From a virus, in UHGV virus genome UHGV-0136483: a stretch of 15,268 bases of DNA. One strand, written 5' to 3'. How positions within the stretch are numbered: position 1 is the stretch's first letter; each line of letters opens with the position of its first letter. Positions 1,126 through 4,489 of the stretch are shown one piece after another. A model generated the notes under the pieces. The model was not told where the DNA came from, made no database searches, and saw only the letters and a program-made list of their open reading frames with translations. A program made the translations under genes and the position numbers.

Positions 1126-1729
1126 GATAGTTATCCTTTTGAGATGTAAGAGGGAAGCCCTCAACGTTGGTATATCTGATACTGAGAAATTTTTCAATGT
1201 GAGTAATAAACTTTCAAATGATTAACTCGATATTGTGATCAATGTCTTTTTTTTGCATCAACAGGATTTCTTTATGAATTGTAGTGGTTGATAAGAGCAA
1301 AGGCCGGACTTTTGTTTTCTTAAATGATTATGGTAATGCATGAATCTCGTGGTTTAATAATTGGAAGTAAGTCAAAGTATCATTTCACAGAGTGTGATTA
1401 TCATATTTAAGAAGTAATTAAATGCTTTTTTCTTTATCTATAAATATAGTTTTTCTGTAATCATTTACTTTTGATATAAACTGATTTTTTAATGATGAGC
1501 CATCACACAGTGCCAATGTTTCCCCCAAGACGATCCTTGCACTCATGTTGATTTAGCCATCCTAATATCTGGGTGAGAGTATAACTGATTCGGTTAACTT
1601 TCTATTATTATTTGCCTGAGGGATAGACTACGAACATGCACCATGTGGGGATATCACAATATCATATGCGATGAATGTGATTTATATTTTTAAAGTATTA
1701 CTTCATATCTCAAAGAGAAATAATAAAAG

Positions 1730-1764
1730 ATAGAGTGAGAAAAGCAGGAGCGAAGTTCACTCCT
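1730..1764 (-). terminator. Weak candidate terminator after the DUF262 gene
   Basis: On the minus strand a 5-bp stem AGGAG/CTCCT (1746-1750 / 1760-1764) with a 9-nt loop is followed by the T-rich stretch GCTTTTCTCACTC, 14 nt after the stop at 1778-1780. Short stem, so low confidence. Confidence 0.3.
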
Positions 1765-1777
1765 ACTATTATATAGT

Positions 1778-2806
1778 TTAATCGTGAAGTAGATTTAAAA
1801 GCACTTCAATTCTACGTGAGCGTTGGGTTTTGCTTTTTGTGCTAGAACTCATAGTTTTTCTATATTCTCTTCTTAATTCCGCATTATGTTGTGTATCTTT
1901 TTCCCACAAGCTATCCAGGAAGGTGGAAAGTCTATTTGACGCTTCTTCTACAGGAACATTATTGTTACTGCAATAAAGTGCATAACTGAAGATTCCGTAT
2001 AAGTGACTAACACCGCTTGCTTTATGACTTTTGAAATCAATATTCATATCAACTAAATAGTCAGTTGTTTTTTCAAAAATAGAAAATGCCTCATTTGTTT
2101 CATCACCATTCTTGGTGCAATACTTCTCGTAAAGACTATCAATTATGTCTTGAGTTGCACCAAATACTTCATCCTCAAGGATCGTGAATATCAATTCAGA
2201 TACAAACTCTTTGTCTTCCATTCTCTTCTTATCAACGTGCTCTAGCAATTTTTGCCAATATTCACGTTGTGAATATTCTACTATTTTTTTATAAAAATCA
2301 GTATCATGATATTTGGCATTCCTTAACTCTTGTCCGTTAAGTCGTTCACCATTTCTGTTAAGCCTGTCGAAAATACTATCAATTATTCTTTCGTCTTCAG
2401 TATCAATGTACTCTATAGGCATCTGATATCGCCAGAATAATTTTTTAACTTCTGCATATTTAGAAGTTGATAAATCGGAAAAAAACACACCAGTCAATTC
2501 ATCATCTTCTTCCTCACTTGCTGATGTTATTTGGCCATTGATAAAATTAACAATGGCAGTGAGCCTCTGTTTTCCGTCAACAACTTCAAACGTGATTCTT
2601 CCGGTGTCATCATCAATTTTTTGATGGAGAAATATAGGGGGAATTGGATAGTTACGTAGTATACTATCTATAAAGAATGATTGTTTTTCTTCATCCCAAA
2701 CACTATCTCTTTGATAAGGAGGATCAAAATTAAATTTGCCTAATGAAAAGCCCTCCCAAAAGGAAGCAATATTAATACTGTTTGAATCCCGCTTTAAAAT
2801 TTCCAT
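1778..2806 (-). CDS. DUF262-family (ParB/Srx-like) protein, 342 aa; second gene of a two-gene operon
   Basis: N-terminal PPYQRDSVW motif and VVDGKQRLTAI (the DGQQR-type motif of DUF262/GmrSD/DndB-like proteins). ATG at 2806-2804 overlaps the upstream stop (TAATG); AAGGAG lies 8 nt upstream. No DUF1524/HNH-like C-terminal module is evident. Low GC. Confidence 0.85.
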   Translation of the reverse strand: MEILKRDSNSINIASFWEGFSLGKFNFDPPYQRDSVWDEEKQSFFIDSILRNYPIPPIFLHQKIDDDTGRITFEVVDGKQRLTAIVNFINGQITSASEEEDDELTGVFFSDLSTSKYAEVKKLFWRYQMPIEYIDTEDERIIDSIFDRLNRNGERLNGQELRNAKYHDTDFYKKIVEYSQREYWQKLLEHVDKKRMEDKEFVSELIFTILEDEVFGATQDIIDSLYEKYCTKNGDETNEAFSIFEKTTDYLVDMNIDFKSHKASGVSHLYGIFSYALYCSNNNVPVEEASNRLSTFLDSLWEKDTQHNAELRREYRKTMSSSTKSKTQRSRRIEVLLNLLHD

Positions 2807-3855
2807 TAGGCAAGCTCCTTTAAAACTTCAGATGATGAATGATGAACATAACTATTAAATACCATTCCAAGTATAGCACTTAAACCATCAACATTTCCTG
2901 GATTAATCATTCTAACATTAACGTCACTGTTTATTTTGCGTATTATTGCATCAATTTCGGCACGATCAACATGCCAATATGAAATACCACAAATGAAGAA
3001 ATCATCGTTTGGGTTGTACGACTCCATCGTCGCTTCAATAGACTCTTTAATTGAATTAGCCCAGTTTTGGGCATAACGATGAGCTTCTCCTGCTGGCGGT
3101 ATTATTGGAATTAATGGCATGTAAAGGCTTAAGTTTTCATGCCGGCATTCGAATTTTGATATGTCGCCATTATTTAAAGATAACTCTTTTTGGATATTGT
3201 AGTTATCTTTTGACATATATCCTTCATACAAGAAGCTAATAGAGCCATGTGGTTTGTATATTTTAAACTTTGCATTCCCGTCAGATATGTTTGGGATGTC
3301 AAATCTGATATTAAGTAAATCAAGAAGGCGCTCAAGATAAATGTCATAGTTATAAGTTATAATATCAACTCGTTCTATGTTTTCGTTTTTGTCCAGTTTC
3401 ATCAAATAGTCTCGCCAGCCACTTTCTAACTTACGTAGATCTTCAGAGGAAACTTTTTCGTTATAATCAATGAAAAGCTCCCTTAAATATGAAACTAATT
3501 CTTGATAAGCATAAATGTAAATGTTTGACAATGGAGTATGACTTGCCTGATTTTTCTTCTTTATTGTTTCTGGAGGTAGAGTTGCATATAAATTTATTAC
3601 TGTAATTAATTCTTCTATTATTTGATATGATGCGGTTCTATTTAGCCCGGGTCTTGCACCCAATCGCCATAGATTTGGGCAATATCGAGCAGAAAGAAAA
3701 CCGGGTTCCCCAGTGGCGGGCCACTTAACCATATCGCCATATTTAAATAGATCGGATGGGTCAATTATATCAAGTTTGTCCATTTTGCTAAGGAGGTCAA
3801 TAGTGAATCCATTCCCAAGCATTAACCCAACTTTCTTTTTTTTTTCGCTGCTCAA
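2806..3855 (-). CDS. SIR2-like (SIR2_2 family, predicted NAD+-binding/NADase fold) protein, 349 aa if the TTG at 3855 is the start; the first ATG is at 3822
   Basis: Three SIR2-type motifs in order: VGLMLGNGFT (GxG Rossmann loop), IITYNYDIYLERLL (TTNYD-like) and KIYKPHGSISF (HGS). The TTG at 3855-3853 is preceded by AAGGA with an 8-nt spacer; the alternative ATG (3822-3820) has a poor RBS. Stop overlaps the DUF262 start. Low GC. Confidence 0.8.
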   Translation of the reverse strand: MSSEKKKKVGLMLGNGFTIDLLSKMDKLDIIDPSDLFKYGDMVKWPATGEPGFLSARYCPNLWRLGARPGLNRTASYQIIEELITVINLYATLPPETIKKKNQASHTPLSNIYIYAYQELVSYLRELFIDYNEKVSSEDLRKLESGWRDYLMKLDKNENIERVDIITYNYDIYLERLLDLLNIRFDIPNISDGNAKFKIYKPHGSISFLYEGYMSKDNYNIQKELSLNNGDISKFECRHENLSLYMPLIPIIPPAGEAHRYAQNWANSIKESIEATMESYNPNDDFFICGISYWHVDRAEIDAIIRKINSDVNVRMINPGNVDGLSAILGMVFNSYVHHSSSEVLKELA

Positions 3856-4000
3856 AAAAGTATCCTTACAAAAGTGTTAACAAAAATACTTACTAATATA
3901 GGATAAAACTTTTTAATTCTAAATTCTAGTTGTTTTCAGCCACTAATGTAGATCCTTTGCACCTAATGATCTCTTCCCTCAGTGGACTGCATTGTGGAGT

Positions 4001-4447
4001 TGACCTGCTCCCACATTTATTAATATACCACGATGTAAGTAATGTCTTCATCAGCAACGTTAGGGTATCCCCATGAAGAAGTGTTTTCCGACGAACAGAT
4101 TATCAGTATCCTCCGCGAGGCCGTAGCCGGCGTTTCTGCCCGGGAACTCTGCCGCAAGAATGCTATTTCAGACGCTACTTTCTACACCGGGCGCCGAAGT
4201 TTGGTGGAATAGAAGTCCCTGAGGTAAAGCGGCTTAAGACACCTGAAGAGGAGAACGACCCCTCAAGACGCTGCTCGCCAAAACCATGCTGGATAAGGAG
4301 GTACTTCAGGTAGCTCTGGACCGAAATTCTGACGACAGAACAGAAGTGGGAAGCCGTGGAAGTCATGTGTGAGGCAACGGGTCTGTCGCAACGTCGTGCC
4401 AGCAGGCTGACTGATGGTTGTATCGAATACTGGAGACAGGTCAACAA
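4001..4447 (+). mobile_element. Decayed IS3-family insertion sequence remnant: left end, frameshifted orfA and only the first codons of orfB; the rest is deleted
   Basis: TGACCTGCTCCC... (4001) resembles IS3-family left inverted repeats. ATG at 4073 opens MKKCFSDEQIISILREAVAGVSARELCRKNAISDATFYTGRRSLVE-stop; the continuation KFGGIEVPEVKRLK... and ...LLAKTMLDKEVLQVALDRNS are in other frames (at least 2 frameshifts). TTEQKWEAVEVMCEATGLSQRRASRLT looks like an orfB N-terminus. Boundaries are approximate. Confidence 0.6.
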
Positions 4448-4489
4448 TGTGCTGAAACTGATTGAGGAGTGATACTTAGGGGATTATGA

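Follow-up and report, generated by a model that had tools for sequence, protein, structure and literature searches.

What does the low-GC DNA beside the integrase gene of virus genome UHGV-0136483 carry, to which mobile element do that integrase and its cargo belong, and what might the cargo do? The stretch analysed here, called the window throughout, is 15,268 nucleotides long. Near its left end lies an AT-rich block with two genes, encoding a SIR2-like protein and a DUF262 protein, followed by a tyrosine integrase gene, an attachment (att) core and the excisionase gene torI. An earlier note, made from the sequence, had taken this arrangement for the integrase end of a P22-like prophage with a defence moron. 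We conclude instead, with good confidence, that 1258–4443 is a cassette lying downstream of the integrase of a genomic island at the tRNA gene argW, later joined in tandem by a KplE1/HK620/Sf6-type prophage, and that it carries a candidate two-gene abortive-infection module. The parts of the cassette are as follows:

1258–1662, no strand assigned: AT-rich non-coding DNA, the left part of the swapped cassette, found only in cassette carriers
1663–1777, minus strand: 3' untranslated tail of the module, with a weak hairpin and then a T-run just past the stop codon (read from the sequence)
1778–2806, minus strand: DUF262 (GmrSD_N, ParB-like NTPase) protein of 342 amino acids, matching Pfam PF03235, nuclease domain absent
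2806–3855, minus strand: SIR2-like (SIRim/AbiH-like) protein of 349 amino acids with a TTG start, assigned from an AlphaFold2 (AF2) model, Foldseek and conserved motifs
3856–3942, minus strand: upstream region of the module, with an AAGGA ribosome-binding site (read from the sequence) and weak promoter-like sites
3994–4443, plus strand: decayed remnant of an IS3-family insertion sequence (IS) with orfA and a frameshift site, orfB missing; the right part of the cassette

The composition profile shows a GC trough of 31–37% at about 1000–4000, against 37–53% for the remaining stretch. All 26 overlapping 500-bp windows within 1000–4040 have a GC content of 0.312–0.358 (mean 0.337), and none of the 108 such windows outside (before 1000 or after 4450; mean 0.456, standard deviation 0.039) is at or below 0.358. 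The individual parts agree: GC is 0.319 in the 1258–1777 spacer, 0.336 in the DUF262 gene (0.268 at third codon positions) and 0.351 in the SIR2-like gene (0.30 at third positions), compared with 0.527 in the IS remnant, 0.442 in the integrase gene (0.404 at third positions) and 0.456 in the prophage part. The earlier observation that this stretch is markedly richer in AT than the prophage to its right is confirmed. The gene-free AT-rich spacer described in the same note is also real: there is no open reading frame (ORF) of at least 50 amino acids in 1198–1777, and the RefSeq annotation is empty over the equivalent of 949–1777. The part of the spacer at 1258–1662, where GC falls to 26% in 200-bp windows, has no ORF of at least 50 amino acids and no Rfam match, and 1258–1700 has no E. 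coli homologue beyond the 27 cassette carriers described below, distant search mode included.

The limits of the cassette come from alignment to the sister island of D8. Window 53–1257 is homologous to that island (96.9% identical), as is 4444–5943 (95.7% identical), whereas the 3186 bp at 1258–4443 are non-homologous to it and are replaced there by an unrelated 6.8-kb segment, which places the swap boundaries at 1257/1258 and 4443/4444. The D8 segment holds a hypothetical gene, a gene for an HsdR_N-domain protein, a second hypothetical gene, an IS3 pseudogene and a PapB fragment. Its HsdR N-terminal domain protein has 565 amino acids and is flanked by hypothetical proteins of 338 and 231 amino acids that belong to no Pfam or PADLOC family; the D8-type cassette may be another uncharacterised defence candidate in the same slot. 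A repeat search of 900–4700 found no direct or inverted repeats bracketing our cassette, and returned only the hairpin after sngC described below. On the right, the IS remnant that the earlier note had recognised on the integrase side is confirmed by RefSeq (a frameshifted, C-terminally truncated transposase pseudogene at 4042–4412), by a Pfam match to HTH_Tnp_1 and by the Rfam frameshift element IS1222_FSE (RF00383; 98.5 bits at 4300–4416). The remnant is about 80% identical to other IS copies from around 3994 and is cut off at 4443. These comparisons of sequence support the view that 1258–4443 is a swapped-in, horizontally acquired low-GC cargo cassette of defence type.

The element to which the cargo belongs is decided at the right of the cassette, where the window continues with these features:

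4563–5780, minus strand: tyrosine integrase of the argW island (P4/IntS family), with the RefSeq start at 5753
5928–5943, minus strand: 16-nt att core CTGCAGGGGACACCAT, the 3' end of argW and the apparent junction of island and tandem prophage
6017–6217, minus strand: torI excisionase of 66 amino acids (phrog_66), the last gene of the KplE1/HK620-type prophage
5944–15268, minus strand: attR arm and early-left region of a P22-like lambdoid prophage, with Erf, a kil/cIII region, a TolA-like gene and the CI repressor

A megablast search of window 1–6300 against 5426 complete E. coli genomes identified 26 chromosomes that match 1–5943 at 99.3–100% identity, and the match ends at 5943 in all 26. 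In ARS-C301 the integrase is followed by tRNA-Arg (window-equivalent 5929–6003, minus strand) and then by yfdC, and the prophage is absent. In both ARS-C301 and D8 this tRNA gene lies 176 bp upstream of the integrase, in the same orientation and with its 3' end adjoining. ARAGORN finds no tRNA in the window, where argW is reduced to its last 15–16 nt because the prophage displaced the tRNA. The 16-nt core sequence published for KplE1 (PMC2951348), CTGCAGGGGACACCAT, has one exact match, at 5928–5943, against 0 expected. Prophage identity begins at 5927 and runs rightward, with matches to the lambdoid prophages of UTI89 and related strains; the TorI ORF of 66 amino acids is 100% identical to the annotated UTI89 TorI, and 5944–15268 shows patchy 96–99% matches to the UTI89 and BEN2908 prophages together with PHROG matches to Erf and a repressor.

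The comparison with related prophages that the earlier note had proposed turned against its own reading. The UTI89 prophage ends in the order torI, core, dsdC, and both the integrase and the cargo are absent there. In the O26:H11 strain 11368 the order is yfdC, argW, intS, acyltransferase, tailspike, P22-type virion genes, early genes, torI, core, island integrase and island; the prophage thus carries an intS of its own, and its oac-type slot with the acyltransferase, about 40 kb away, beside argW and at the opposite end from torI. The island integrase (Pfam Arm-DNA-bind_3, Phage_int_M and Phage_integrase; NCBIfam PRK09692) is a full-length relative of IntS, 48% identical. Judged by identity to these genomes, the window crosses the point where two tandem elements meet, an argW island and a KplE1/HK620-type prophage, and the gtr/oac-type slot of the latter would lie at its other end, past the right end of the window. 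Because the prophage sits between the tRNA and the island, it appears to have integrated into argW after the island; its later insertion at the same argW core would therefore explain why its torI end now abuts the island integrase. The note's proposal that the integrase is the prophage's own is not sustained, since 1–5943 occurs beside an intact argW without a prophage in 26 chromosomes; nor does the cargo occupy the gtr/oac slot of an Sf6/KplE1/P22-like prophage, for it lies outside the att core and the O26 slot holds an acyltransferase and then a tailspike gene. Locating the prophage ends, as the note had also suggested, succeeded for one of them, at the 5928–5943 core, and left cargo and integrase outside the prophage. 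In short, the window shares with the recombination module of KplE1 (CPS-53), HK620 and Sf6 the exact 16-nt core and an identical TorI, but its integrase heads a non-phage island. At the 5781–6016 junction, cross-reaction of IntS/TorI with the att arms of the island, or co-excision of both elements, seems possible.

The island itself is an accessory element. Its integrase is present in 265 of the 5426 complete genomes, and the SIR2/DUF262 cassette in 27, all of them among the 265. The integrase stands at the 3' end of a tRNA gene, the distribution is patchy and the cargo is mosaic with many IS copies, as is characteristic of a tRNA-anchored genomic island; in ARS-C301 the island is large and mosaic, with iol, fec, a type I secretion system and many IS fragments. 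Its site, dsdC–yfdC with tRNA-Arg-CCT, is the defence-carrying hotspot #11 of Hochhauser et al. (PMC10121019), and Moritz and Welch (2006) is cited for the variability of the argW–dsdCXA site. The correspondence with this hotspot is close (the site is identical, the argW 3' end is used in the same way, and integrase-headed islands occur alongside KplE1/HK620-type prophages), and the difference is that SIR2-like/DUF262 cargo is rare in it, at the 27 genomes just mentioned. E. coli ATCC 8739, in wide use as a laboratory and quality-control strain, carries the integrase and the cassette at 99.9–100% identity.

To the left of the cassette the window holds three further features:

1–52, plus strand: right end of an IS1203/IS3-family element, which truncates the helicase gene and matches the end of an O26 IS3-family copy
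53–948 (start 47/53), plus strand: C-terminal pseudogene of the Shango helicase SngC (DEAD/DEAH box), a RefSeq pseudogene and a PADLOC SngC match
949–1257, no strand assigned: conserved island backbone downstream of sngC, holding a hairpin with a perfect 15-bp stem at 962–992

In ARS-C301 the coding sequence of the IS1203 transposase ends at window-equivalent position 10, and homology to the uninterrupted D8 island begins at 53. According to RefSeq the sngC pseudogene is frameshifted, has an internal stop and lacks its N-terminus; it matches the PADLOC SngC model at 4.9e-30 over model positions 564–719 of 720. A Shango system in the window was rejected, as only this frameshifted C-terminal SngC fragment, cut by IS1203, is left. 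The hairpin and T-run at 960–994 directly follow the sngC stop codon, are kept in the D8-type island, and are probably the terminator of the Shango operon. D8 has an intact Shango left of the slot (TerB-domain protein, ATPase and DEAD/DEAH helicase), and because sister islands such as this one keep it at the same place, we regard the integrase-proximal end of the island as a small defence cluster. Such an arrangement is ordinary: within a catalogued hotspot, a tRNA-anchored island carries defence genes close to its integrase. The pseudogene and IS3 terminus that the earlier note had placed at the far border of the low-GC block are both present, but neither touches it, as about 310 bp of island backbone (949–1257) lie between. 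Likewise, its idea of a defence moron in a known hotspot survives in part: low-GC, defence-type cargo does lie downstream of an integrase, by IS debris and in a catalogued hotspot, but it is not the moron of the prophage. In stating what would speak against it, the note had mentioned "an island", and in this it foresaw the outcome found.

The SIR2-like gene (2806–3855) precedes the DUF262 gene (1778–2806) on the minus strand, and its stop codon overlaps the DUF262 start by 1 nt; the two form a translationally coupled operon. Promoter-like sites at 3952–3923 and 3923–3895 match at 9 of 12 positions and are no commoner than in shuffled sequence. Homology to the copy in Klebsiella oxytoca is limited to 1663–3942 (87% nucleotide identity) and that to the Proteus copy to 1702–3935, and 1258–1662 is not common to either. 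Since only this part is common to the Klebsiella and Proteus copies, we consider 1663–3942 to be a portable unit of about 2.3 kb, which is also present in Klebsiella, Proteus, Pectobacterium and Yersinia. Furthermore, the pairing is preserved over great distances: among 80 loci, taken from one genome per species, the SIR2-like gene is directly followed by a co-oriented DUF262 gene in 77, and of the three loci that deviate, two lie at the end of a contig. Six loci inspected individually show the same pairing. Paired loci span Gammaproteobacteria, Betaproteobacteria, Campylobacterota, Bacteroidota, Bacillota, Verrucomicrobiota, Planctomycetota and Nitrospirota, and the neighbours of the pair include CBASS, restriction-modification, AbiJ and toxin-antitoxin genes. 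The ratios of nonsynonymous to synonymous substitution (dN/dS) against the Klebsiella copy, 0.019 for the SIR2-like gene and 0.047 for the DUF262 gene, indicate strong purifying selection on both; the Proteus copy was left out of this comparison because its length and frame do not match.

The AF2 model of the SIR2-like protein (mean predicted local distance difference test score, pLDDT, 88.1) was compared with the PDB by Foldseek, and the top 50 matches are all defence-system entries containing a SIR2 protein. The best of them are SIR2-HerA/Nezha (6.7e-10), KomBC, ThsA, SPARSA and DSR2, at probability 1.0, and the modelled structure thereby confirms a SIR2 Rossmann fold. In an alignment of 31 sequences, G14-N15-G16, Y170-D171 and K201-P202-H203-G204-S205 are invariant and N169 is conserved in at least 90%; by resemblance to ThsA and DSR2, these motifs hold the putative nicotinamide adenine dinucleotide (NAD)-binding and catalytic residues. 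The protein therefore shares its fold with the defence SIR2 NADases (SIR2-HerA/Nezha, ThsA of Thoeris, DSR2, SPARSA, KomBC and AbiH), keeps the Gly-rich loop and the NYD and H-G motifs, and is of typical size for AbiH-like single-domain proteins. It differs from them in having a sequence identity of only 10–17%, in falling below the SIR2_2 and AbiH thresholds, and in its partner, which here is DUF262 rather than HerA, SLOG, prokaryotic Argonaute (pAgo) or a tail-tube-sensing domain.

The DUF262 protein is recognised more readily. PF03235 is its sole Pfam match (96 bits, residues 27–166), and the motif D77-G78-K79-Q80-R81 is invariant. Its AF2 model (pLDDT 86.8) has an all-helical C-terminal half, and the best Foldseek matches are BrxU and ParB, with no nuclease match. 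A sequence search of the PDB gave nothing and NCBIfam has no family for it; the PADLOC models NsnA (1.9e-39) and PD-T4-2_A (1.4e-27) match it over nearly its full length. The GmrSD/BrxU type IV enzymes have the same N-terminal DUF262 ParB-like NTPase with a DGQQR-type motif (here DGKQR), and BrxU is the best structural match. An assignment to these type IV restriction enzymes was nevertheless rejected, as the DUF1524/HNH nuclease domain is absent and the C-terminal half is helical. Menshen (NsnA), PD-T4-2 and Dazbog likewise combine a nuclease-less DUF262 protein with a separately encoded partner, and each was rejected in turn. For Menshen (NsnABC) there is only the NsnA-like protein, with neither the NsnB ATPase nor NsnC, and the DUF262 gene is followed by a 520-bp gene-free spacer. 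For PD-T4-2 the A-like match is weaker than that to NsnA, and the partner has no PD-T4-2_B match at E ≤0.01. For Dazbog no Dzb model matches at E ≤0.01 and the gene order is reversed: the DUF262 gene comes first in Dazbog as described, and here the SIR2-like gene is first and the DUF262 gene second.

Several observations weigh against this account of the locus or limit it. Because 229 of the 265 integrase-bearing genomes carry the D8-type 6.8-kb segment and 27 the SIR2/DUF262 cassette, the slot is not hypervariable but essentially dimorphic in the island family. No second copy of the att core turned up in searches reaching 43 kb from argW in D8 and about 60 kb in ARS-C301. The far end of the prophage and argW lie outside the window, so that the tandem arrangement is drawn from identity to other genomes, and the exact combination of island and prophage occurs in no complete E. 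coli genome of the collection. As for the pair, the SIR2-like protein scores below the Pfam gathering thresholds (SIR2_2, 18.2 against 24.5; AbiH, 23.0 against 30.9), its PADLOC SIR2 matches are weak (E about 1e-3), and neither NCBIfam nor PHROGs has a family for it. By tblastn it is found in no deposited phage genome and on two plasmids only, and the pair is therefore not a typical phage moron. Finally, no PADLOC 2.0, Pfam or NCBIfam model names the pair, and a description of SIR2 with DUF262 was not found in the literature searched; the module is apparently unnamed in all of these.

The account that we favour can be put as a sequence of events and a division of labour. A large, IS-ridden island anchored at argW would have acquired the cassette immediately downstream of its integrase, and a P22-like prophage of KplE1/HK620/Sf6 type would later have inserted into the same argW core, between tRNA and island. 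The cassette consists of about 400 bp of orphan AT-rich DNA, the self-contained unit of about 2.3 kb and the truncated IS3-family element. In GmrSD, BrxU and SspE, DNA modification is reported to be read by a DUF262 NTPase, which then turns on an effector domain. The SIR2 domain of Thoeris, DSR2 and SIR2-HerA depletes NAD+. By these two sets of analogies, sensing most likely falls to the DUF262 protein and the effector role to the SIR2-like protein. The DUF262 NTPase would respond, as sensor or switch, to some feature of incoming DNA, probably one such as its modification state, and would license its SIR2-like partner to hydrolyse NAD+; loss of NAD+ would then stop phage replication at the price of the infected cell, that is, by abortive infection. 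We consider that the pair probably functions in defence, whereas the specific scheme of a DUF262 sensor or switch and a NAD+-consuming SIR2-like effector acting by abortive infection is a tentative proposal, to which we give slightly less than even chances.

The best supported of the alternatives ties the pair to DNA methylation. A C-5 cytosine methyltransferase is among the four nearest neighbours in 14 of 37 loci, and in 17 of the 80 loci an orthologous 5-methylcytosine (m5C) methyltransferase lies directly beside the pair, upstream or downstream. These adjoining enzymes are 51–86% identical across Bacillota, Verrucomicrobiota and Gammaproteobacteria, and are accompanied by nucleases of three unrelated types: among those checked or matched, NgoMIV-type at 7 loci, NaeI-type at 2 and HNH at 4. 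NgoMIV and NaeI both cut GCCGGC, and when we speak of GCCGGC-type systems the label is taken from these two nuclease family names. Dazbog, a nuclease-less DUF262 system, has been reported to be triggered by a phage m5C methylase; together with the adjoining methyltransferases this suggests that the pair may read cytosine methylation and may have co-evolved with a compatible resident methyltransferase. The pair could then be the accessory arm of a methylation-based system, in which DUF262 senses whether GCCGGC or a similar site carries m5C and the SIR2-like protein acts as effector, with the E. coli copy an orphan separated from its methyltransferase; the use of DUF262 by GmrSD, BrxU and SspE to read modified DNA, the recurrent neighbour with its three nuclease types and the Dazbog trigger all speak in its favour. 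Against it, about half of the loci, every enterobacterial one among them, lack a methyltransferase within 7 kb of the pair, and co-transfer within defence islands could explain the association, and we consider this alternative possible but unlikely. The fullest version of the idea makes the pair an undescribed, phylum-spanning defence system that couples a type-IV-restriction-like sensor of methylation state to NAD+ depletion in place of DNA cleavage. Co-evolution with GCCGGC-type m5C restriction-modification would have made the sensor tolerant of resident methylation, and the E. coli copy, ATCC 8739 included, would be an orphan; this we hold to be quite unlikely as it stands.

A second alternative is that the pair is a selfish, addictive module of toxin-antitoxin type or has a housekeeping role, and that the low-GC block is hitch-hiking DNA. 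The Pectobacterium pair does lie among toxin-antitoxin modules, and the distribution is patchy and horizontally transferred. However, all close structural relatives of the SIR2-like protein are defence proteins, the DUF262 domain family is otherwise used in restriction and defence, the neighbours are enriched for restriction-modification, CBASS and Abi genes, and purifying selection is strong, which together make this explanation improbable.

The weakest alternative, which makes the integrase at 4563–5780 part of the P22-like prophage and places the SIR2/DUF262 operon as a moron in the integrase-proximal gtr/oac slot of that prophage, draws on the order torI, att core, int and cargo on one strand, as expected around attP in KplE1/HK620-type phages, on the kinship of the integrase with IntS, which together with that order explains the first reading as an imitation of an attP region, and on the prophage-type integrase adjoining the Proteus mirabilis pair, but it is exceedingly improbable given that 1–5943 stands beside an intact argW without any prophage in 26 genomes, that the UTI89 prophage exists without 1–5943 and the O26 prophage carries an intS and an acyltransferase of its own at the opposite end, that what lies left of the cargo is a Shango remnant and IS1203, with the iol and fec operons in sister genomes, and not a tailspike, and that no phage record encodes the SIR2-like protein. 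In Proteus mirabilis, 280 bp separate the pair (87% protein identity) from the 3' end of the integrase gene; excisionase-like, antiterminator Q and lysis genes come after the integrase, and that copy of the pair may be an integrase-proximal prophage moron.

Two observations concern the rest of the window. A search of 1–6300 with Rfam at E ≤1 returned only the IS1222 frameshift element and a sub-threshold match to the small RNA STnc130 at 6167–6294 (plus strand), antisense to the 5' end of torI; this match, with 32 bits where the gathering score is 55 (E 0.068), is probably due to chance. In addition, 11600–12200 has an extreme AT skew of -0.63 and a GC skew of about -0.2. It falls within an ORF of 322 amino acids (11571–12539) whose prophage homologue bears the annotation 'cell envelope biogenesis protein TolA' and is frameshifted in UTI89, and it probably consists of repetitive coding sequence of low complexity.

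Returning to the account that we favour, an island with a two-gene cassette abutted by a later prophage, tandem elements with related integrases at argW create a junction that mimics attP and are a trap for annotation and for tools that call prophage boundaries. E. coli ATCC 8739 offers a tractable native host of the cassette, and the recurrent adjacency of GCCGGC-type m5C restriction-modification is a testable lead on what DUF262 proteins sense. If the pair is a true defence system, it would add a new sensor-effector combination, SIR2 with a nuclease-less DUF262 protein, to the family of systems that act by NAD+ depletion.

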